This document shows, piece by piece, positions 21,875-35,939 of a stretch of DNA of 42,682 nt. The first letter of the stretch is position 1. The number at the start of each line of letters is the position of its first letter. Origin of the DNA: a virus (lineage: Duplodnaviria > Heunggongvirae > Uroviricota > Caudoviricetes); the IMG/VR virus record IMGVR_UViG_2703718834_000012; one strand, written 5' to 3'. Both the position numbers and the translations under genes were made by a program. The notes under the pieces were generated by a model. It was not told the origin of the DNA. It saw only the letters and a list, made by a program, of their open reading frames with translations, and did no database searches.

Positions 21875-22516
21875 CTATCTGGCCGAGCTGATCGCCTCAG
21901 CAATCGCCTGGTGCAGCGCTGAGGGTAACAATGCGTTGACCATGGTGTTTGCCCTGTCCATATAGCCGAGCGTTGGTTTGACTGGAAGCGCGTCTCCAAA
22001 CCGAATGAGCAATTTTGGTGCAGGTTGCTTAATCTTGTCTCTGCGCGTGCCGTTCGGAGAACGTTTTGCCCGTTTCTTCCCTTTTTTGATTTTCGGCTTT
22101 TTTCTCTGCCACACGGCATTCACGCCACCAACGTCACCAATAAATACGTTTGGCTTTGCTTTGAGCTGAGAGAGCTTATTACGCGGCAGGTTGCCGTATT
22201 TATTAAGCTTTATGTCTTTCGGATTAAGCAAAGCACTACCATTAAGCTTGTGCTCTCCGCCGAACTCGAAGGGTTCAAGGTAGCCAGCAGCAGTATCACG
22301 AACAAACACCTTCGCACGAAGGCTGTTTTTCCTGGCACCAACTGACCCTACCGATTTAACTGTAAAAGGTGTTGGATTATCCAGATTCCGCTCAAATGCT
22401 GTTTTTTGGGCCGCTTCTATCTGGCGAACCACTTTAGTCATAGCCTGGGCAGTCGCAAACGGTATTTGCTTCTGCAGCTGTCTTAACTGACTGGAAAGGT
22501 CCTTAAGCGTTGCCAT
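21875..22516 (-). CDS. Hypothetical lysine-rich late protein
   Basis: 213 aa, AGGAGG RBS; KKPKIKKGKKRAKR basic tract; between lysis genes and cos. Confidence 0.5.
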   Translation of the reverse strand: MATLKDLSSQLRQLQKQIPFATAQAMTKVVRQIEAAQKTAFERNLDNPTPFTVKSVGSVGARKNSLRAKVFVRDTAAGYLEPFEFGGEHKLNGSALLNPKDIKLNKYGNLPRNKLSQLKAKPNVFIGDVGGVNAVWQRKKPKIKKGKKRAKRSPNGTRRDKIKQPAPKLLIRFGDALPVKPTLGYMDRANTMVNALLPSALHQAIAEAISSAR

Positions 22517-22572
22517 ATCATTGACCTCCTAGTTACAGTAATTAAGATCAGTTTGCTCATAAAGTTGACAAT

Positions 22573-22599
22573 AAAAAACCGCCCGTAGGCGGTTAGTCG
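22573..22599 (-). terminator. Rho-independent terminator
   Basis: Stem ACCGCC/GGCGGT with T-run on the minus strand, at the end of CDS 22593..22997. Confidence 0.55.
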
Positions 22600-22997
22600 A
22601 ACATTTTATCAAGTTGCTTAGCAAGAGCTCGGTTAAACAGCTCCTTCGAAACTGTCATCAGCGTGCCCATACTGGCATCTTTGAATCCGGTTTTTAATGT
22701 TGCCCAAACCTCTTTGTTACGGAGAGCATCCAAGAAGTCATGCCCCATCGCGGTCAATCGCAAGGGCATTACAGCCCAGTGAGTCATTCCGTCTAAAGAC
22801 TGAATAGCACCAAAGCCGGGCTCCCCATCACTCCTGATAATCAGCCCTCTATCCTCAAGCAAACGCATATGAAACACAAATGTGTCAGTTTCACAATTGA
22901 ACCCTAAATCATTTAATCGAATAATATCGGTATCAGGTGAATCCGATGCCTCGAAAGCCTCGAGCAAACCTTTAAGGTATTCTTGATCTATTTGCAT
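22593..22997 (-). CDS. Hypothetical late protein
   Basis: 134 aa ORF downstream of Rz; no recognisable motif. Confidence 0.5.
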   Translation of the reverse strand: MQIDQEYLKGLLEAFEASDSPDTDIIRLNDLGFNCETDTFVFHMRLLEDRGLIIRSDGEPGFGAIQSLDGMTHWAVMPLRLTAMGHDFLDALRNKEVWATLKTGFKDASMGTLMTVSKELFNRALAKQLDKMFD

Positions 22998-23029
22998 AAC
23001 CCCTCCGTATGTAAAAGGTTAATTTAACA

Positions 23030-23509
23030 TCAATTTAAGCACTGCTCTTTGATGTATTCCTGCAAATATCCAACCTGTTTCGTCACTGTGACGATTCGCT
23101 CTCTGAGGGTGAAATAATCCCGTTCAGCGGAGTCAGTAAGTCGGGGGCCGGTAACATCGCCCAGGCCGCCGGTGCTGGTCGCTCCGTTCGCGGGACATCT
23201 GGCGTTGACGTGCAGCCCACACTTGCCAGTGCGAACACAACGCTGCAAATCATCAAGCTGCTTTTTAGCATCAGCTAAGTCCTTCGTGTATTTGGCATCC
23301 AGCACCGCTGCATCACGCTGGCGGATCTGCATGTCTTTGATGGTGGCGTTCGCCTGGTTAAGATTCTTAATGGCTTTATCGCGCTGGTCTTTGTAGGTGA
23401 TGGCGTTGCCGCGGTAGTGGTTAATAGCCCAAGCCATGGAAACCATCAGGCATATAACGACAGCACAGATAATTGCTGTTAATCGGCTCACTAATCTAAC
23501 CCCCAACAC
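23030..23509 (-). CDS. Spanin, inner-membrane subunit (Rz-like)
   Basis: 159 aa, N-terminal TM helix then coiled-coil-like region; Rz1-like ORF embedded in +1 frame. Confidence 0.75.
23083..23271 (-). CDS. Spanin, outer-membrane lipoprotein subunit (Rz1-like)
   Basis: 62 aa wholly embedded in Rz; lipobox LASVGC; proline-rich mature part. Confidence 0.7.
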
Positions 23510-24027
23510 GCCAGCGCGCTTTCCTGGTCCCGTCTCTCAACCTGACCATAGCAGCCATTCTTCTGGCCTTTGGTTAGTCGGCAATCGCGGCCACCGTCTT
23601 TGATCCACCAGCGGATTGCTTCACATGCCCCTTTACGATCACCGGCGTTGATGCGTTTATAAAAGGTAGAAGGGAAGCATTTACCAGGACCAATGTTGTA
23701 CGGGCAGAATGAGGCAATCCCCGCTTTCTGCGGTTCGGTCAGTGGTACCTGGATATTGCGGTCGACCCAAGCCAGCGCCTTGTTCAGCTCGCTGGCGTTC
23801 ACCTGATTACATTTCTCTGGCGATAGCCTCATACCTGGGGTAACAGGCTTGCCGTCAACCGTGGTAGCTCCCCGGCAAATCGTCCAGATACCGCTGCCAT
23901 CTTTGTACGCTGTAAGGCTGTTTCCCTCTTTCTCATTCAGAAACTGATCGAGAATGACGGATGCTGGCGCACCAGCAAGTACCAACCCCAGAACAGCAGC
24001 ACTTAATTTTGCTCTGGATCCCATCAC
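23491..24027 (-). CDS. SAR endolysin (T4 lysozyme-like muramidase)
   Basis: 178 aa; Gly/Ala-rich signal-arrest-release N-terminus followed by E..D..T catalytic region, as in phage 21 R. Confidence 0.85.
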
Positions 24028-24326
24028 TCACCTTCCTTTTGTAATGCCTCAACGACCACGCTTGCAGCCGCAGGACGTTCGTGAAGGGGTTTATCACCAA
24101 CGCCTTTCAGGTAGTCATTAACCATTTTTGTTCGCTTCTCGTCCTCTCTACGCCTGCGGTGGGCATCCACGCGACCATTGACATAGGAGGCAAACGAGAT
24201 AAGCAGACCAGCGGCGCCAAAGAACATGAACACCATATCCTGAGTGGTAAAACCAATGGCTGACGCCAGAGCTGCTACCCACGCGAAGAACTGCGTGAAA
24301 ATGTTCCCTGAATCATTCATTTTCAT
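24024..24326 (-). CDS. Holin (probable pinholin, dual-start MKM)
   Basis: 100 aa, two TM helices, charged C-terminus; directly upstream of SAR endolysin. Confidence 0.7.
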   Translation of the reverse strand: MKMNDSGNIFTQFFAWVAALASAIGFTTQDMVFMFFGAAGLLISFASYVNGRVDAHRRRREDEKRTKMVNDYLKGVGDKPLHERPAAASVVVEALQKEGE

Positions 24327-24394
24327 GGTCTCTCACCTCGCTGTGTGCGGGTGTTATTGAGGTAATAAAAAAGGCCGCTTGAGCGACCTCACGT

Positions 24395-25447
24395 TTATTC
24401 CCCTGTTAACGCCCTTATTTCCTCCACCGTCTGGCTAAACCTGTCCTCCTCGAGTTCAACGCCGATAGCCTGGCGGCCAAGTTCCAGCGCGATTTTCACG
24501 GTCGAACCGGACCCCATAAAGAAATCAGCCACCACATCACCAGGCTTACTGCTGGCGTTGATGATCTGCCGCAACATGTCAGCGGGTTTTTCGCATGGGT
24601 GTTTACCTGGGTAAAACTGAACGGGTTTATGTGTCCAGACGTCGGTATAAGGAACGGATACGGAAACAGAGAAATGCCGCCGAAGCGATTTGTACTCTTC
24701 GAGCAGCTCTGAATACTTGCGATTTAACGAATGCCACATAGCCACCAGCTGGTGGTGTGGTGTTGCCAGTTCGCCGTTCTGGTGCTTTTCGATGGCTACC
24801 TGCGTGAAAAGGGACTGAAGATTCCGGTAGTCTAATTCATTCGGTAATTGCCACTGGCTACCGCTGAACCAGTGAGACACCATGTTCTTCTTTCCAGTCG
24901 CATCGGCTATTTGTTTTGAGGTTATGCCAAGCGCTTCACGTGCATCCCGGAAATAAGAAATTAGGGGAGTCATTACATGCTGCTTCAGCTCGCTTCCCTT
25001 CTCCGCGTAACCGTCGCTCTTTGGTTTATACGGCCCCTGGTAATGCTCAGCGAAGAGGATGCGCTCTGTTGCAGGGAAGTAAGAGCGCAGACTCTCTTTA
25101 TTACAGCCATTCCAGCGGCCCGACGGTTTAGCCCAGATGATGTGGTTCAGGACGTTGAACCGCTCACGCATCATGATCTCAATGTCTGCCGCCAGGCGGT
25201 GACCGGAGAAAAGATAAAGACTGCCAGCAGGTTTAAGCACTCGCCAGAATTGTGCGAGGCACATATCAAGCCAGCGAAGATAATCCTCATCCCCTTTCCA
25301 CTGATTGTCCCAGCCGTTGGGTTTCACTTTGAAGTACGGCGGATCCGTGACTATCAGGTCAATGGAGTTATCAGGGAGAGTGGCGATGTATTGCAGGCTA
25401 TCAGCGTTGACTAACTCGACACTGTTTATATTTACAGTATTTTTCAT
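24395..25447 (-). CDS. DNA methyltransferase, beta-class amino-MTase (N6-adenine or N4-cytosine)
   Basis: 350 aa; N-terminal catalytic DPPY motif (IVTDPPYF) and C-terminal SAM-binding FxGxG (DFFMGSGST). Confidence 0.85.
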   Translation of the reverse strand: MKNTVNINSVELVNADSLQYIATLPDNSIDLIVTDPPYFKVKPNGWDNQWKGDEDYLRWLDMCLAQFWRVLKPAGSLYLFSGHRLAADIEIMMRERFNVLNHIIWAKPSGRWNGCNKESLRSYFPATERILFAEHYQGPYKPKSDGYAEKGSELKQHVMTPLISYFRDAREALGITSKQIADATGKKNMVSHWFSGSQWQLPNELDYRNLQSLFTQVAIEKHQNGELATPHHQLVAMWHSLNRKYSELLEEYKSLRRHFSVSVSVPYTDVWTHKPVQFYPGKHPCEKPADMLRQIINASSKPGDVVADFFMGSGSTVKIALELGRQAIGVELEEDRFSQTVEEIRALTGE

Positions 25448-25616
25448 AGATCAATAAGCGTAACTCTGATAGGCTCTCTTTGCTTTTGCGCTAAAGCAAT
25501 GGGCCTTGGTTAGCTTGTGACCTGAAAGCATGAGCTGATGGCTGGTGGGTGCTCCAACATCCACCAGCCGCCCATTTTCACAGCAAAATACCTCCGAAAT
25601 GGAGGTGCGAAGGCAT

Positions 25617-25645
25617 AAAAAAACCCCGCTTAAGCGAGGTTATTT
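25617..25645 (-). terminator. Rho-independent terminator after accessory cassette
   Basis: Hairpin CCCCGC-TTAA-GCGAGG followed by a T7 run on the minus strand, 12 nt after the cassette stop. Confidence 0.55.
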
Positions 25646-25656
25646 CGAATAGATAA

Positions 25657-26061
25657 TCAAGCAGCAGGTTCGGATGGATAAACCTGCTCATACATCTGCT
25701 GAAGGGTGTCAATAGCTTTGTTAGCCATTATCAATATAGCTTCCGCATCAGCCTTACTTAAAGTTCTATCAAGCTCGTAATCTGCCCATTTACGTCGGGT
25801 ATGCAAATGTCTCAGCATTGTTCCCATAGAAATGAGTTTCATTTTTTCAAACGGCTCATTTCCTTTTAACCATGCATCATTTGTAAGATAGTCGCGAACA
25901 GCTTGGTGTGACGACTTGTTTGGGCATTTCTCAAGCTTATCAAGCGTTTCATGATAAACTCCATAATACGCTCGACCAATGGCGTTTCTGTAACCGATTT
26001 CATCGTTGTGAGAAATGCATTTACCAGCAAAAACAATAAAATCTTTCCCCGATACGCTCAT
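25657..26061 (-). CDS. Hypothetical protein, accessory cassette gene 2 (possible HEPN-like fold)
   Basis: 134 aa; ATG overlaps upstream stop (TGATG); RAYYGVYHE and RRKWADYE segments reminiscent of HEPN proteins; AT-rich. Confidence 0.55.
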   Translation of the reverse strand: MSVSGKDFIVFAGKCISHNDEIGYRNAIGRAYYGVYHETLDKLEKCPNKSSHQAVRDYLTNDAWLKGNEPFEKMKLISMGTMLRHLHTRRKWADYELDRTLSKADAEAILIMANKAIDTLQQMYEQVYPSEPAA

Positions 26062-26816
26062 CAGTAAATCCCTCTTTTTTCATCGCTTTGGAACCAGGAT
26101 GTAAAAGGGCTGTTCCGATAACTATCATCTGAGAGCAAAACCAACAGTTCCATGTTCATTTCAGCTAAAACCTGCGGATCAGCAGTTTGGGCTCTAACGA
26201 TGAATGCATTGTCATCATCTCCACCAAGATAATAGCTAACACTTGAACAGTTAATACCGCGCTTGTTCGCAATCTCTTCAGCTTGATCGCAAAGGGCTTC
26301 TAGTTCTCGAGAAGAAAGACGGGTAGCGTTTTTGAAATCAACAATCTGTTCAGCCATATAATTTCCCTGATTGATTATATCCTCTCGCTCTTGGCCATCA
26401 TAAAGAGCAGCCATTTTGAGGGAGAACTTTTTAACCAACTTGTCGTTGCCGATACAAAATGCAGCGTTTCTTGCTACAAGCCTCAGTTCATGTGAAGGGA
26501 AAAGCTCAACTATTCTAAACAACTCAACGCGATGCTCATAGTTATGAGCCGAACGAGAAAGATACGCCAAGTAGTTTTGTGCGATCGTTGGACTCCCAGA
26601 GCTCATCGCGTCTTTGAATAAACGTACTGCATCAGAGTGACGCCCGAGAGTTCCATTAAGCCATGCATACGCATGTGCGCGCTCACTTATTGGAAGTTTA
26701 GCAATGTCGTGCTCAATTTCCGCAATAGTGTCTGTATCCGGGACTTCTCCCTTCTGGAAGTAATCGAGGATTGTTGCAAGCAGTTCTTGTTCTTTTGACT
26801 CAGGCTGTCCTGACAT
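26061..26816 (-). CDS. Hypothetical protein, accessory cassette gene 1
   Basis: 251 aa; AT-rich codon usage unlike neighbouring phage genes; no signal peptide or known motif. Confidence 0.55.
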   Translation of the reverse strand: MSGQPESKEQELLATILDYFQKGEVPDTDTIAEIEHDIAKLPISERAHAYAWLNGTLGRHSDAVRLFKDAMSSGSPTIAQNYLAYLSRSAHNYEHRVELFRIVELFPSHELRLVARNAAFCIGNDKLVKKFSLKMAALYDGQEREDIINQGNYMAEQIVDFKNATRLSSRELEALCDQAEEIANKRGINCSSVSYYLGGDDDNAFIVRAQTADPQVLAEMNMELLVLLSDDSYRNSPFTSWFQSDEKRGIY

Positions 26817-27162
26817 AATTTTCCCGAAGAAAACTAAATTCTGTATGTTTTCAATAGCTTCACTGGATAGGTTTTTATATTGCTGTCATCAGTATTGAAG
26901 CTTTTACGGGATTGTACAGGACCATCAGCGTTCTACTTGTGCATAAGAATTTAATAAACCTACAGACTTATCCACAGAAAAAAGAGTTATCAACAAAAAA
27001 AGTTATTCACAACTTAACTAATAGCAAAATATTGTTGATAAGCTGTGCGTAATTATCATATCCATCAAACTTACGCACATTAGAGCCTTGTGTTGCCTAT
27101 CCATCGTTTTTTCCTATCAAAACGAAACGACATGCTTTTCTGCGATTAAAAAAGTATTCCGC

Positions 27163-27193
27163 AAAATTAAAAAACCCGCTCACTGGCGGGTTT
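27163..27193 (-). terminator. Strong rho-independent terminator downstream of Q-like gene (tR'-like)
   Basis: 8-bp stem 27172-27179/27186-27193 followed by TTTTTTAATTTT on the minus strand. Confidence 0.6.
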
Positions 27194-27226
27194 ATATACT
27201 GTTGGCACAATATCAAATTTACACGA

Positions 27227-27255
27227 AATATATGCTAATTAGTTCATTTTTGCAA
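27227..27255 (-). promoter_or_regulatory. Candidate late promoter (pR'-like)
   Basis: Minus strand TTGCAA-N17-TATATT straddling the Q stop codon, about 40-50 nt upstream of the terminator. Confidence 0.3.
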
Positions 27256-27928
27256 TACCTTGCTGATAGTTTGCTGCCTTTTGTTGTGAACGTGATCGCG
27301 AAACATGAAGTAGCGCCTTGGAGTCGAGTCCCTTATACAGGCTGATAATTACATTGTAATGTTCCACGTAATTTTGAGACCAGTTTGTTTTGTTAACTCC
27401 CACCAGCGCAGCCAGATCACCATATTGATAGACATCACGCCCAGCCAATTCAGCCTTCACATCCTGTGCCGCCAGCCAGATAAGCTGTCGCAACCGTTCG
27501 ACGGTCTTCTTCGCCACCTTCCTCCCGGCCAGATGCTCGCAAAATTTCGACCACGCCCACTGAGTAATCAGCACCTGATTATCCCAACTCACATTCTCGC
27601 TATAGTTCCATAGCAACCAGGCCTTCTGGTGTTCTTCGAGCGTCATCAGTGCGCGGCGCCACGATGCCGTTGAATACTCAACCGGTTGCACCAAGGGAAT
27701 ATGCGAACCCTTGGTATGCGACTGTTTGCCGGGAATCGGTGGGTTATCAAGCGTAATCATTTTCCCGGTCACTTCATCCAATATTCGAGGCTTCTTACGT
27801 TTAAACGTTCCCGTATCAAACTGCGCGTTCTCAAGCCACGCCATCAACTGCCCTTTCGTCGCACCACTTAAATCGGCGGTAGCCACCATCAGCTGCTGGC
27901 GCACGTATTCGAGGAATTGAGTGTTCAT
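27239..27928 (-). CDS. Putative late-gene antiterminator (Q-like)
   Basis: 229 aa; sits between RusA and the late operon; recalled resemblance to Q-family antiterminators. Confidence 0.5.
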   Translation of the reverse strand: MNTQFLEYVRQQLMVATADLSGATKGQLMAWLENAQFDTGTFKRKKPRILDEVTGKMITLDNPPIPGKQSHTKGSHIPLVQPVEYSTASWRRALMTLEEHQKAWLLWNYSENVSWDNQVLITQWAWSKFCEHLAGRKVAKKTVERLRQLIWLAAQDVKAELAGRDVYQYGDLAALVGVNKTNWSQNYVEHYNVIISLYKGLDSKALLHVSRSRSQQKAANYQQGIAKMN

Positions 27929-28058
27929 ACAGCACCGCCTATGGTTTTGATGTAATTTTTCAGTATCCGGTAGTCCGTTAGCACAGAGCCGGGAAAGTGG
28001 TATAAGCGAAGCCGCTGCCAGCGAACGCGGAGGTGATCGGAAAAACAGGATTCAAATG

Positions 28059-28421
28059 TCATACGGCCTCCAGCCCGGTGATTGTCAGTTCCAGCTTTCC
28101 ACCTTTGGTAACGGGCATCTTCACAACGCGATAATCAACGACCTGAGCATCGTCCAGCCAGAAACCTGCTTTGGTGAGTGCGTCAAAAGCGGCCTTTTGC
28201 AGATTATCCAGGTCACGGCGACGGCGATCCGGCATGTGGCACTCAATGCGGATTTTCACAGGCATAGTCAGACCGATATCCAGCATTGCGTTTTTAATGA
28301 TTCGGGCGACGTTATCGCGGTATGCCTGCCCTTCTGCGCTGATGTGCGTGCGCCCGCGATTATGGCGGTAGTAGCTGTTATTGCTCGGCGGCCAGGGCAA
28401 TGTGATGTTGTAAGTATTCAC
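28059..28421 (-). CDS. rusA: Holliday junction resolvase RusA
   Basis: GTG start at 28419-28421; [26 protein letters not shown]... nearly identical in pattern to E. coli RusA. Confidence 0.9.
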
Positions 28422-28708
28422 GCCTTGATTACCCCCTCTTTCAGCCAGATAACCTGCGTTCTCGCCATACCTTCCAGCGCGCATTCTTTAGCATACTCAG
28501 CATCGACAAAATGTGTACGGCGGTCGATCTCGTCGTGACAGGCAGAGCATGCAATGGTGGCAATCAGATCAGGCGGTTTGATTCCGGTGCCACATAACCC
28601 GGCCAGGCGAATGTGCGCCAGTACAGACGTTTCCGGGTTACCGTTGCAGACGCCGGGAATTCGAACCTGACAATCACGACCACGAGCCTCTTTGCGTAAA
28701 TTTGCCAT
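28418..28708 (-). CDS. ybcO: YbcO-like nin-region protein (DUF1364, putative nuclease)
   Basis: Start [26 protein letters not shown]...; Cys-rich; GTGA overlap with rusA. Confidence 0.7.
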
Positions 28709-32804: not shown

Positions 32805-33344
32805 TCATATAGCCCCCAGCATAATCTGCACCATTTCCATCAACGGACCGGTTAACCCAGGGTCAACGCGATACATCTCCACGATCCCCTCGCTCAACTC
32901 TTTCAGCTTCTGATGACGTGGCGCATCCATTGCGACAGCAATCTTCGCTTCGCTGGTTTCCTTCTCCAGCCTTGCCAGACGAGCCATTACGTTGTCTTCT
33001 GGTAGCAGACGATTGCGGTATTCAATCGGCAGGACAGCGAGGATTGCCGGAGTCAGCTGGCGAACGTTTTCGCGGTACCGTTCGCTGTTGAAATGGTTAT
33101 CCAGAAAGCGGAAAAGCTTCTGACGCTGTCGGCTGAGGTCATCAGGGAAAGTGATCTCGTCTCCCCCTTGAGCCTGGTACTCTTCGATGATCAGAGCAGA
33201 AACGACATCCTGACCATCTACACCCGCCCACGCACGAACGGCATCGCGGATCTGGTCATGTTTATCTACCGAGACAGGTTGATTGCGATTTATCATCGCA
33301 GCCGTTTGATATCCGCTATTTTGATGAAGTGATAGTGACTGCAT
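32805..33344 (-). CDS. Regulatory protein in cII position (CII/YdaT-like, uncertain)
   Basis: 179 aa directly downstream of cro-like gene; assignment by position. Confidence 0.4.
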   Translation of the reverse strand: MQSLSLHQNSGYQTAAMINRNQPVSVDKHDQIRDAVRAWAGVDGQDVVSALIIEEYQAQGGDEITFPDDLSRQRQKLFRFLDNHFNSERYRENVRQLTPAILAVLPIEYRNRLLPEDNVMARLARLEKETSEAKIAVAMDAPRHQKLKELSEGIVEMYRVDPGLTGPLMEMVQIMLGAI

Positions 33345-33346
33345 GG

Positions 33347-33580
33347 TTATGCCCTCGCTTCCTGAGCCGGTAATCCATCCGTAGGGTTGAGGTACAAATC
33401 AGGGCGTAACTCATGTGGAGTTACACCTGTAGCATTGAAAATAGGAATGACACGGTTAGCCGGTACGAATCCATTGTCACGGTGACGCCAGTGACTGACC
33501 GTCATTGGGGATACATTGAGCTTTTCTGCTAAACGGGTTGCACCCCCTACGATGCATATTGCTTTATCAAGTGCTTTCAT
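33347..33580 (-). CDS. Cro-like HTH regulator
   Basis: Start MKALDKAICIVGGATRLAEKLNVSPMTVSHWRHR at ATG 33578-33580 with GGAG RBS; divergent from repressor. Confidence 0.7.
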   Translation of the reverse strand: MKALDKAICIVGGATRLAEKLNVSPMTVSHWRHRDNGFVPANRVIPIFNATGVTPHELRPDLYLNPTDGLPAQEARA

Positions 33581-33607
33581 ATTTGGCTCCAAGTAATAAC
33601 GAACCAA

Positions 33608-33653
33608 ATTAAACATTATGTTTATGTTCAAGTCAACATTATGAATGTTGAGG
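33608..33653. promoter_or_regulatory. Immunity-region operators with divergent pR/pRM-like promoters
   Basis: Palindromes TAAACATTATGTTTA (33610-33624) and AACATTATGAATGTT (33635-33649); minus-strand TTGACT-N17-TTTAAT and plus-strand TTGAGG-N16-TAGAAT overlap them. Confidence 0.55.
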
Positions 33654-33683
33654 CGATAAACTTTTAGTTTAGAATCTTGATAT

Positions 33684-34079
33684 ATGAGAAAAAACACACA
33701 CCAAACAGATAACCCGCAGGTTCGGCGGTTAAATGAAATCATCGAGAAGAAGCGCATATCCAAAGCGGATATAGCGAGAATCTGTGGTGTGAGCGCACAA
33801 TCAGTCAACAACTGGTTTGTCAGAGGAGCGATAGGAAAAAGCTCAGCAATAAAACTTGCCGATGCGCTAGGCGTAAGTCTTGAGTGGGTTCTAGGTCAGG
33901 ACGTGGATGCTAAGGACGGTTTGAGACACGACGAACGGAGACTGTTGGAACTCTATAATCAACTCCCAAACGAAGAAGAACAACAGAACATGTTGCGGAT
34001 CGTATCTCTACGGTTGAAAGAACTCGATGAACTGTACGCCAAGTACATGGGACGGCGGATTAAGGGGGATGGTGAGTAG
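33684..34079 (+). CDS. CI-like prophage repressor (short, HTH only)
   Basis: 131 aa; XRE-type HTH (ISKADIARICGVSAQSVNNWF); no LexA-like S24 autocleavage domain; apparently leaderless start. Confidence 0.8.
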   Translation: MRKNTHQTDNPQVRRLNEIIEKKRISKADIARICGVSAQSVNNWFVRGAIGKSSAIKLADALGVSLEWVLGQDVDAKDGLRHDERRLLELYNQLPNEEEQQNMLRIVSLRLKELDELYAKYMGRRIKGDGE

Positions 34080-34151
34080 CACGGTAGTTAAAAGCTACTT
34101 ACCCCTCAGATGTTTCTGTACCAATGGGATACATCTTAACGATATGCAAAA

Positions 34152-34180
34152 TTCACTTACCAGTTAATTATCATTATATT
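34152..34180 (+). promoter_or_regulatory. Candidate sigma70 promoter for immunity-region cassette
   Basis: TTCACT-N17-TATATT about 10 nt upstream of the cassette start. Confidence 0.35.
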
Positions 34181-34190
34181 GAGAGCTGAG

Positions 34191-34514
34191 ATGGGCGAAC
34201 AGGTTGAAGAAGAAAAAAGTCAGGAAAGTGTCAATACAACAGCATTGACGCTATCAATATCAAGACAAGAATTTCGAGATTATTTTCAACGCCTCGAAGA
34301 AAAACATGGCGAGATGGCCTGTCCGCTTTGTAAGCATACGCTTTGGGGAGTTCCTCCACGAGAAGATAGTCAAGACTATCCTGCAATAATTACCCTTCCT
34401 CTACCTCATTCAGCTGGCCGAGGTATATGGGCATTCCCTGTTATATGTGTAGAATGTGGTTTCATTGCCACATTTGCTGCTAACCGAGTATCACTAAAGG
34501 TTCGAGAGGGATAA
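34191..34514 (+). CDS. Hypothetical zinc-ribbon protein (cassette gene 1)
   Basis: 107 aa from ATG 34191 (track start at 34179 is TTG); CPLCKH...CVECG Cys pairs; AT-rich. Confidence 0.55.
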   Translation: MGEQVEEEKSQESVNTTALTLSISRQEFRDYFQRLEEKHGEMACPLCKHTLWGVPPREDSQDYPAIITLPLPHSAGRGIWAFPVICVECGFIATFAANRVSLKVREG

Positions 34515-34516
34515 CA

Positions 34517-34900
34517 GTGGCTGCAGTTTGCTTAGATCATCAATCAAGCTCAATTATTTCGATTGATCGGGTTGAAGTATTTGAGACCTTCCCAAAAATC
34601 GAAAATCATGTTGGCGATATTCCTTACACACTTGATGAATCCAGGATATTGTTGCTAAGGAACAGTGTTTCACATCCTGATAGCTGTGTTGGGCTGAAAG
34701 CATTTTCTGTCGCGCTAATAGTGATGCTAGGTGTTATAGTGTGGTTAACAGGAGGTAAGGTTATGTACTATATCCCTCTTTACGCAGCACTCATACCAGT
34801 AGCTTATTGGTTAGTTAAGATTGGATTTGCGTATTATGTAGTCAAAACACAAAAGTTACATGTTGACTCGAAATCGTTCTCGGGAAAAAATCATGGCTAA
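34517..34900 (+). CDS. Hypothetical membrane protein (cassette gene 2)
   Basis: 127 aa, GTG start with GAGAGGG RBS 2 nt after upstream stop; two predicted TM helices. Confidence 0.55.
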   Translation: MAAVCLDHQSSSIISIDRVEVFETFPKIENHVGDIPYTLDESRILLLRNSVSHPDSCVGLKAFSVALIVMLGVIVWLTGGKVMYYIPLYAALIPVAYWLVKIGFAYYVVKTQKLHVDSKSFSGKNHG

Positions 34901-35318
34901 CGATAACGTTAAAAATGTAGCTAAAAATGGACTACCTTTTCTAATTGTCTCCCTCATATGTGGTTATGCTACAGATGCTATTCCTATCTTCTTTCCTGAC
35001 GGTGAGTTTCGTGATTGGGCCTACAGATCTGTTCCTTTTCTGTCTTTGATTCTTCTTTTTGTAATCAAAACGTTAAAGGATTTTGGTGGAATGTCATTTA
35101 CAGGTCTGTTATTTACAATATGCTCAAGCCGAGAAAAGAAAAGGCTAAAGATCATTATGGATGACAATCACGCTAGTGATGCGACCATGCAAGCAGCAAA
35201 AAAACGTTATGACGAAATATTACAAAAAGAACTCGAGTTAAGCTCAAGGTTGCTGACCTACATTTCTCAGTGGTCGATCTTTAAGAAAGCACCGACCCCC
35301 CCATCATCTGTTGAATAA
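34893..35318 (+). CDS. Hypothetical membrane protein (cassette gene 3)
   Basis: Start MANDNVKN overlapping upstream stop by 8 nt; 2-3 hydrophobic helices then charged helical tail. Confidence 0.55.
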   Translation: MANDNVKNVAKNGLPFLIVSLICGYATDAIPIFFPDGEFRDWAYRSVPFLSLILLFVIKTLKDFGGMSFTGLLFTICSSREKKRLKIIMDDNHASDATMQAAKKRYDEILQKELELSSRLLTYISQWSIFKKAPTPPSSVE

Positions 35319-35324
35319 AGCAAT

Positions 35325-35351
35325 AACCCAGTTACCGAACTGGGTTTTTTA
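35325..35351 (+). terminator. Rho-independent terminator
   Basis: Perfect 8-bp stem ACCCAGTT/AACTGGGT, loop ACCG, then TTTTTTA. Confidence 0.7.
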
Positions 35352-35555
35352 TTGCCCTTTTCTCACCATAGCAGCCGCATCCCGCAATACCCACTTGTGA
35401 ATGACGTTTCCCACTACCCTGCGCTTAGCCTCTAGACTATCCACAATCGCATCGCGGCTGATCACAATCCCGTTAGCTATCAGACTGACAACTGCGCCAC
35501 CAATCTCCCCCGCAATAAACGCTGCGCGGTCTTCTTCCAGTTCGTCACGATCCAT
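35349..35555 (-). CDS. Hypothetical protein, divergent from pL operon
   Basis: 68 aa with GAGGGTGA RBS; non-repetitive sequence. Confidence 0.45.
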   Translation of the reverse strand: MDRDELEEDRAAFIAGEIGGAVVSLIANGIVISRDAIVDSLEAKRRVVGNVIHKWVLRDAAAMVRKGQ

Positions 35556-35667
35556 AACTCACCCTCATCGATTTTTTTATAACCACAAAATAGACCACAA
35601 AACATACTACTCGTGCCAACGAGCGCAACCAACTAAACTTTTTGTTTATATAAAAACACTCATTATG

Positions 35668-35696
35668 TTGACACGTAAATAAACATTGTGTTTAAT
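35668..35696 (+). promoter_or_regulatory. pL-like promoter with overlapping operator (OL)
   Basis: TTGACA-N17-TTTAAT; palindrome TAAACATTGTGTTTA (35680-35694) matches the OR1-type site 14/15. Confidence 0.55.
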
Positions 35697-35939
35697 TACT
35701 CCATCAACACAACCACCAAAGCAGGACGCCCACGAAGAAGCTGTCCGGGGCATACGAAGACCGGAATGAGGTGGTGAGATTAACGCGCAGTAGGTTTGAA
35801 ACGTTCCGCCAGCCTGGCGACAAGGGCAAAGCACAGAGTGAGCTTCGCGGTGGTGAATTGCAGAGTTAAAACGCTCAACCGTGAAGATCAGCGCCGCGGC
35901 ATCACCAGCGAAGTTCACTCAGAAAAACTGGAGAACATC

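Follow-up and report, generated by a model that had tools for sequence, protein, structure and literature searches.

Why should a temperate phage carry a DNA methyltransferase with no restriction partner at the head of its late operon, and how would a toxic enzyme of this kind be kept silent in the lysogen? The question is raised by a gene at 24395..25447 on the minus strand of a 42,682-nucleotide viral sequence (Caudoviricetes; IMG/VR record IMGVR_UViG_2703718834_000012), referred to here as a whole as the window. An earlier note, made from the letters of the sequence, described the gene as an orphan beta-class amino-methyltransferase that may protect phage DNA from host restriction or may pair functionally with neighbouring genes. 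Our analysis points to an orphan enzyme of the M.EcoGII family that would methylate adenine nearly irrespective of context, would be expressed late in dependence on the antiterminator Q, would be gated by a structured leader RNA immediately before its start codon and would serve anti-restriction. We put the probability of this explanation as a whole at about 0.7.

A methyltransferase of the M.EcoGII family

The methylase gene is a 350-amino-acid (aa) open reading frame (ORF) with an ATG start, and this start codon agrees with the N-terminus of the experimentally expressed M.EcoGII. DPPY at aa 35-38 precedes FMGSG at aa 310-314, which is the beta motif order, and the Pfam family PF01555 (N6_N4_Mtase) matches aa 29-340 with E=1.3e-42 and 146.7 bits against a cut-off of 26.7, a match far beyond chance; the class assigned earlier from the order DPPY then FxGxG is thereby confirmed. 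The PADLOC model for Type II methyltransferases matches at 7e-145 and the PHROG assignment is phrog_67, DNA methyltransferase. The alpha-class Dam-like families PF02086 and PF05869, relative to which the motif order is reversed, gave no match, and the NCBIfam models for YhdJ (NF008572, 110.7 bits against an equivalog cut-off of 292) and CcrM (NF050803, 70.2 against 830) both score far below their cut-offs. Relatives in the PDB are distant and match just the two Rossmann halves, which are catalytic and lie at about aa 1-134 and about aa 260-350. Between them is a target-recognition domain, predicted to be of helix-turn-helix type, at about aa 160-237; a weak HTH_3 match (E=9e-4, below cut-off) falls inside this central insert at aa 167-197, and in an AlphaFold model the recognition domain of the M.EcoGII family is a four-helix bundle with a helix-turn-helix (PMC11551740). 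The ratio of non-synonymous to synonymous substitution (dN/dS) against relatives is 0.04-0.18, and the methylase is therefore under purifying selection and maintained.

M.EcoGII, a beta-class enzyme of 349 aa encoded by a prophage, methylates adenine whatever the context (PMC5778455); it is silent in the lysogen and harmful to cells when expressed (PMC5778455; PMC12707154). Our reference was a 349-aa protein recovered from an outbreak-lineage genome of E. coli O104:H4, which equals the printed M.EcoGII sequence (supplement of PMC11551740) apart from three text-recognition errors. The window protein is identical to it at 275 of 347 positions (79%), over the full length and without gaps, and identity is 84% in the N-terminal Rossmann part, 72% in the linker, 78% in the recognition domain and 71% in the C-terminal Rossmann part. 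The charged linkers of M.EcoGII, which have been proposed to support non-specific binding (PMC11551740), are retained without insertions or deletions. Identity to the reconstructed ancestors Anc291 and Anc289 is 84-85%, and to SUPREM (Anc284) 73%, all slight underestimates as the ancestor sequences were taken from a machine-read PDF with a few errors. Every reconstructed ancestor methylates both DNA and RNA, and on RNA the action of M.EcoGII, Anc291 and SUPREM is largely independent of context (PMC11551740). M.PflMI, the closest relative with site specificity, shares 27% identity with M.EcoGII and has no charged linker (PMC11551740). The methylase of phage 1720a-02, called very similar to M.EcoGII by Murray et al. 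2018 (PMC5778455), is 77% identical to the window protein and 93% to M.EcoGII.

Because M.EcoGII and the ancestors bracket it at 79-85% identity, the window methylase most likely acts on adenine with little or no sequence preference. Where the earlier note left N6-adenine or N4-cytosine as the target, the closest characterised relative points to the former. The same kinship bears on how the note proposed to refute its reading, namely by the lack of any new methylated motif on induction or cloning: this is flawed as a refutation, being the expected result when the nearest characterised enzyme methylates any adenine. The enzyme itself is ordinary, a further allele of a family that is already characterised and sold as a reagent.

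A Type II restriction-modification system has an adjacent cognate endonuclease; the neighbours here are a holin and two proteins without a recognisable family, and Pfam, NCBIfam and PADLOC scans of them revealed no recognisable restriction endonuclease. Scans of further window ORFs gave none either, and the 99%-identical prophage of strain NCTC 13148 has none annotated. The nucleases that the window does encode are YbcO and RecE and, in our reading of a 141-aa ORF at 28059..28484, RusA. The methylase is an orphan, as had been claimed.

The leader RNA before the start codon

Immediately 5' of the methylase, at 25448..25596 (minus strand, as are all leader and late-operon elements below), lies a conserved structured leader RNA that abuts the start codon and has a conserved core at about 25584-25448. 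In aligned upstream DNA of four phages, about 145 nucleotides (nt) are better conserved than the start of the coding sequence, and, compared with the window copy, the leader has a higher nucleotide identity than the coding sequence at 47 of 49 loci (means 81% and 72%). A covariance model of the leader, R1, matches 25442..25596 at 164.7 bits. The gene for M.EcoGII carries the leader as well (R1 match at 135.6 bits). The leader was found by blastn in 63 fetched loci, where nearly all copies end at the methylase ATG; the few exceptions are of the Serratia type and end some bases away from the called start. A scan of IMG/VR with a 23-nt motif from the leader core gave 120 matches, 111 of them with a DPPY-containing ORF starting 51-52 nt downstream, 7 cut by the contig end and 2 followed by a frameshifted methylase, and none of the 120 is a leader without a methylase. 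By blastn the leader is present in 2636 of 5426 complete E. coli genomes, in up to eight copies each, and no annotated feature lies beneath the match in the 30 E. coli records listed.

The leader model did not match at some loci of more distant methylase homologues, numbered here L056-L058, L060, L073, L076 and L078 (Xenorhabdus), L077 (Aeromonas), L025 and L037, whose methylases are 53-80% identical. Either the leader is restricted to part of the methylase family or it has diverged beyond detection at these loci. In Trabulsiella odontotermitis a second, partial copy of the region of helix P1 (see below) occurs about 800 nt upstream of the full leader (L011:4013-4101, 30.4 bits).

Two domains, a P1 hairpin and a long composite P2-P3-P4 hairpin, were obtained with RNAalifold and a hand model. 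P1 (25530..25575) is closed by AUGGGC/GCUCAU (25575-25570 with 25535-25530) and continues in an inner stack, GGCUGGUGG/CCACCAGCC (25569-25561 with 25548-25540). The second domain (25448..25523) consists of P2a, AGGUCA/UGAUCU (25523-25518 with 25453-25448), which ends one nt before the AUG, P2b, AAGC/GCUU (25516-25513 with 25459-25456), P3, AGGC/GCCU (25506-25503 with 25474-25471), and P4, UUGCUUU/AAAGCAA (25499-25493 with 25486-25480). Compensatory changes were seen in 11 of 12 inner pairs of P1, in 4 of 4 pairs of P2b and 5 of 5 of P4, and also in P3. In a structure-naive MAFFT alignment 89.5% of the cells in the modelled helices are paired, against 28-41% in slid controls, and 15 pairs are changed on both sides, in 81 cells against a shuffled mean of 24. 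An alignment made with the R1 model from one full leader copy in each of 68 sources, which is model-fitted and leans towards the structure, has 92.9% of cells paired against 27-42% in slid controls, with 28 of 40 pairs changed on both sides; the 136 cells so changed (shuffled mean 26), like those of the first alignment, overstate the number of independent events as many of the leader sequences are related.

In the Serratia, Providencia, Hafnia, Erwinia and Gilliamella copies the P1 and P4 stems are entirely different in sequence with pairing kept, and two positions each have a G.U pair, which fits the sense strand only, in 50 of 69 sequences. Stems that vary while their pairing is kept, together with sense-only G.U pairs, argue for a transcribed and folded RNA. 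At minimum free energy (z=-4.19) the window leader folds with its start region paired, and we see no Shine-Dalgarno sequence ahead of the methylase AUG. Two further helices were rejected: an alternative GCUU:AAGC, paired in only 70% of cells, and a poorly paired helix P2c, which was dropped from the model.

In the leader copies the 5' strand of P1 contains a near-invariant UGGGC (25570-25574), whose perfect complement, a near-invariant GCCCA (25500-25504), lies beside P3. Their pairing would compete with the outer part of P1 and with P3. It could belong to a second conformation or to a tertiary contact; as neither of the two strands varies, covariation is uninformative on this point.

Known elements do not account for the leader. 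No Rfam 15 family scores at or above its threshold in either stretch searched, 22000-28500 and 25420-25660. The highest-scoring match, P26 (24.6 bits against a threshold of 36), is on the opposite strand and was rejected because the G.U pairs fit the sense strand only. StxS, AgvB and AsxR, prophage small RNAs from the insertion site at pR', differ from the leader both as elements and in position. A Trp-type leader peptide or attenuator was considered from the opening AUG GGC GGC UGG UGG and rejected: the upstream ORFs vary in frame, length and stop, and UGG UGG is missing from the Providencia and Hafnia copies. No upstream ORF is conserved in the leader, and we found no description of it in the literature.

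The late operon and its cargo

The window is an E. coli prophage in which lambdoid control genes are combined with a contractile tail, and it is 99% identical to the prophage of strain NCTC 13148 over 5656-28071. On the minus strand the order is Q, a pR'-like promoter, a terminator, two genes for proteins of 251 and 134 aa, two hairpins, the methylase, a terminator and the lysis genes. Q (27239..27928; PF06323, E=1.2e-97) is expected, as regulator, to let transcription run on into the genes for the methylase and for lysis. The putative pR' promoter (27255..27227, TTGCAA-17-TATATT) overlaps the 3' end of Q and is followed by a strong tR'-like terminator (27193..27172), both being predicted from consensus matches. 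A terminator-like site with an 8-bp stem, five GC pairs and the tail TTTTTATG ends the two-gene cassette (25622..25641), and a second hairpin, ACCUCC..GGAGGU with a U-rich tail, stands immediately 5' of the leader (25590..25606), where relatives differ in sequence and keep the pairing. The terminator that the earlier note had placed between these genes and the methylase is accordingly found again, with a second one beside it. A further terminator-like site between the methylase stop and the holin (24371..24390) is conserved in Flotzy and VE-F5.

The lysis cassette (23030..24326; identified from ORFs, Pfam and PHROG) follows directly. It comprises a holin (24326..24024, phrog_1350), a lysozyme (24027..23491, PF00959) and a pair of genes that we take to be Rz (23509..23030) with an embedded Rz1 (23271..23083), for which the near-identical NCTC 13148 prophage is annotated 'lysis protein'. 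All are encoded on the minus strand, in line with the co-orientation reported earlier.

Comparison with related loci shows that this arrangement is conserved, and the late-operon location proposed in the earlier note agrees with it. At least 589 of the 5426 complete E. coli genomes contain the methylase coding sequence by megablast, a lower bound, 13 of them at 99% identity or more and most at about 78%. In a phage collection 162 records have a tblastn match over most of the methylase, including mEp460, phiP27 and several Stx-converting phages, and a scan of species-representative genomes gave 80 loci across Enterobacterales at 53-94% identity. Immediately downstream, at least 52 of 62 loci have a holin ORF, and six PHROG holin families are represented; Q proteins, which fall into three unrelated Pfam families, occupy one of the nearest two upstream ORFs of at least 100 aa at about 53 of 64 loci. 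About 50 related loci have the methylase between a Q gene and a holin gene. The order Q, methylase, lysis genes is also found in Flotzy and mEp460. In 1720a-02 and at the M.EcoGII locus the methylase follows Q and other genes precede the lysis genes, namely remnants of the stx2 region in the former and tRNA genes and an esterase in the latter. The methylase is thus a conserved promoter-proximal occupant of the late-operon head whatever the type of Q or holin.

At the M.EcoGII locus of E. coli O104:H4 FDAARGOS_349 (L206:2149-2400), tRNA-Ile, tRNA-Arg and tRNA-Arg lie directly 3' of the methylase gene, with a NanS-p-type esterase beyond them. Stx-converting phages are organised in this way, and methylase and leader fall between Q and the tRNA/toxin site. 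No tRNA was found in the window with ARAGORN.

The cassette of 251 and 134 aa (25657-26816), whose genes overlap at start and stop, lies between tR' and the methylase. Neither protein has a Pfam, NCBIfam or PADLOC match, and their PHROGs, 17809 and 5176, are of unknown function. The 251-aa protein has no tblastn match in the phage collection. Single-sequence structure models are poor (pLDDT, the predicted local distance difference test, 47.5 and 61.2), that of the 251-aa protein showing at low confidence a run of paired helices and then a small alpha/beta domain. A HEPN-like appearance of the 134-aa protein by eye was dismissed, as there was no Pfam hit even at E<=10 and no sequence match in the PDB. 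Of the 5426 complete E. coli genomes 12 contain the cassette, in near-identical copies that belong to a single prophage type; it is absent from Flotzy, in which the methylase DNA is 97% identical, and from all other contexts examined. The site downstream of pR', where it sits, tolerates insertions in lambdoid phages (PMC4104026). The cassette therefore looks like an independent insert, cargo and no partner of the methylase, and it may be a defence or toxin module expressed in the lysogen. The functional pairing with neighbouring genes offered as an alternative in the earlier note finds no support, given a widespread methylase and so rare a cassette.

Further regions of the prophage may be mentioned. 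The interval from the lysis cassette to the small terminase gene (21875-22997, minus strand) contains two genes: a gene for a DUF2513 protein (22997..22593), followed by a terminator, and one for a 213-aa protein that matches phrog_1924, 'minor tail protein' (E=4e-62), an odd location for a tail gene; the terminase genes come next. Beside the immunity region, 33122-35705 departs from the otherwise 97-99% identical NCTC 13148 prophage, with three small ORFs (111, 127 and 152 aa, two of them membrane-like) without a Pfam match in place of one unrelated 434-aa protein, and looks like a swappable cargo site. A frameshifted gene suspected at 34179-35318 was ruled out, as the region merely differs from the NCTC 13148 prophage.

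Proposed role, alternatives and known systems

From these data we infer non-specific activity, late-only expression, translational gating by the leader and a role in anti-restriction. In the lysogen, transcripts from pR' or from the cargo would stop at the upstream terminators (tR', that after the cassette and that before the leader). Any read-through RNA would be poorly translated, since the pairing of P2a with the six nt before the AUG would sequester the start region, and such sequestration would explain the silence in the lysogen that is reported for M.EcoGII. After induction, RNA polymerase modified by Q would pass the terminators and the methylase would be made alongside the lysis and morphogenesis proteins. 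It could then act on replicated phage DNA prior to packaging, and the progeny genomes would be protected in the next host against most Type I, II and III restriction sites that contain adenine, at the cost of exposure to nucleases dependent on N6-methyladenine (m6A). The leader may in this way limit translation of a toxic enzyme. It is a tentative suggestion, to which we give somewhat less than even odds, that the leader represents an undescribed class of cis-regulatory RNA dedicated to M.EcoGII-type genes in which the start is occluded until a lytic signal arrives. The conserved unpaired nucleotides and the complementarity of UGGGC and GCCCA leave room for a true switch, and the opening signal could be a phage protein (like Com of phage Mu), RNA processing or a small ligand such as S-adenosylmethionine or S-adenosylhomocysteine.

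Several points weigh against the explanation as a whole. The window protein differs from M.EcoGII at 21% of its residues, and 17 of the 78 recognition-domain residues are among these. In the literature the M.EcoGII family is assumed to protect phage DNA from restriction (PMC5778455, PMC12707154); we found no paper showing hypermethylated virion DNA for any phage with an enzyme of the family, and none showing restriction protection by such an enzyme. Flanking terminators are enriched, not universal: in a strict scan for a hairpin with a T-run, 37 of 68 loci have one on the upstream side and 30 of 63 have one no more than 120 nt past the methylase stop, compared with 28 of 228 random windows, so that about half of the related loci pass. 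The promoter and terminator assignments are predictions from consensus matches. Helix P2a, on which occlusion of the start would depend, is almost invariant, its support coming mainly from one-sided changes of G.U to A-U, and the relatedness of the leader sequences tempers the counts given above for the other helices.

Lambdoid phages swap modules at conserved boundaries, and the stretch before the methylase, which lies between variable upstream cargo and the gene, might be such a DNA junction, or a promoter or operator, with no regulatory RNA at all. This is quite improbable, as P1, P2b, P3 and P4 change their sequence and stay paired and the G.U pairs fit the sense strand only; moreover, no sigma-70-like minus-strand promoter was found in the stretch and no upstream ORF is conserved in it. 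A second alternative concerns the enzyme. Since its divergence from M.EcoGII the methylase may have regained or retained specificity and write one discrete motif, as the earlier note expected, for which the differences in the recognition domain leave scope and for which the fold would be suitable, as it also serves the site-specific M.PflMI (PMC11551740). We regard this as unlikely, because the enzymes and ancestors at 79-85% identity are context-free, M.PflMI is far removed from M.EcoGII, and the charged linker has been kept without insertions or deletions.

The enzyme might also be active and non-specific and serve another purpose, such as late shutdown or damage of the host, marking of DNA for replication or packaging, or methylation of RNA. 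M.EcoGII harms cells and also methylates RNA and DNA:RNA hybrids (PMC5778455), some phage orphan methyltransferases have packaging or regulatory functions, e.g., P1 Dmt (PMC12707154), and a location beside the lysis genes would fit a late function directed at the host. However, the activity of M.EcoGII on DNA far exceeds that on RNA (PMC11551740 Table S3), RNA activity varies among the ancestors as if neutral, and a modifier serving anti-restriction itself needs late expression just before packaging; another role thus seems improbable. We attach very little probability to an unrecognised modification-dependent defence or toxin system formed by the methylase with the 251-aa and 134-aa proteins. 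The genes are adjacent and co-oriented, neither cassette protein belongs to a recognisable family, and the 12 genomes with the cassette compare with 13 that have the methylase allele at 99% or more (adjacency was checked in VE-F5 and NCTC 13148), but this co-occurrence reflects shared ancestry, as the 12 copies are near-identical and of one prophage type. Hundreds of E. coli genomes have methylase and leader and no cassette, as do Flotzy, mEp460 and 1720a-02, the M.EcoGII locus and about 70 loci from other genera; two terminator-like hairpins part the cassette from the methylase, and the cassette occupies a known insertion-tolerant site downstream of pR' (PMC4104026).

If a context-free, late-expressed anti-restriction enzyme is indeed encoded here, context-free adenine methylases would be standard equipment at the late-operon head of enterobacterial temperate phages. 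Restriction barriers to such phages, including Stx-converting ones, may then be weaker than reasoning from motifs predicts, and m6A-dependent defences may be the natural counter to them. The leader RNA matters more than the enzyme: it is unannotated, better conserved than the gene and present in about half of the complete E. coli genomes, and it offers a concrete and testable answer to the open question in M.EcoGII research of how a toxic enzyme is silent in lysogens.

Among known systems M.EcoGII is the closest, similar to the window enzyme in length class (349 and 350 aa), motif order, predicted helix-turn-helix recognition domain and charged linkers, and similar also in its prophage position downstream of Q with a structured leader before the gene; its locus differs in that the tRNA genes and the esterase follow, not the holin directly. 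M.EcoGI is a 95%-identical paralogue of M.EcoGII in E. coli O104:H4 C227-11 (PMC5778455). Anc291 and Anc289 are closer to the window protein than any extant characterised enzyme and are synthetic reconstructions. M.PflMI (CCANNNNNTGG) has the overall predicted fold of the M.EcoGII family, recognition domain included, and differs from M.EcoGII, besides its low identity and lack of a charged linker, in being part of a restriction-modification pair. The chromosomal beta-class adenine methyltransferases YhdJ (PRK11524) and CcrM have the Rossmann halves in common with the window methylase, as seen from partial NCBIfam matches at the N- and C-termini, whereas their central recognition domain is unrelated and both are sequence-specific. 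In phage Mu, an RNA hairpin over the ribosome-binding site of mom blocks translation until the Com protein opens it. Mom is an unrelated protein that makes an acetamido modification of adenine, and no Com-like activator was identified here. The likeness is one of function, as Mom is likewise a late phage DNA modification function that is toxic and silent in the lysogen. Mom is also mentioned in PMC12707154. The mom leader hairpin can by analogy be taken as a functional precedent for the methylase leader, which could work in a similar manner.

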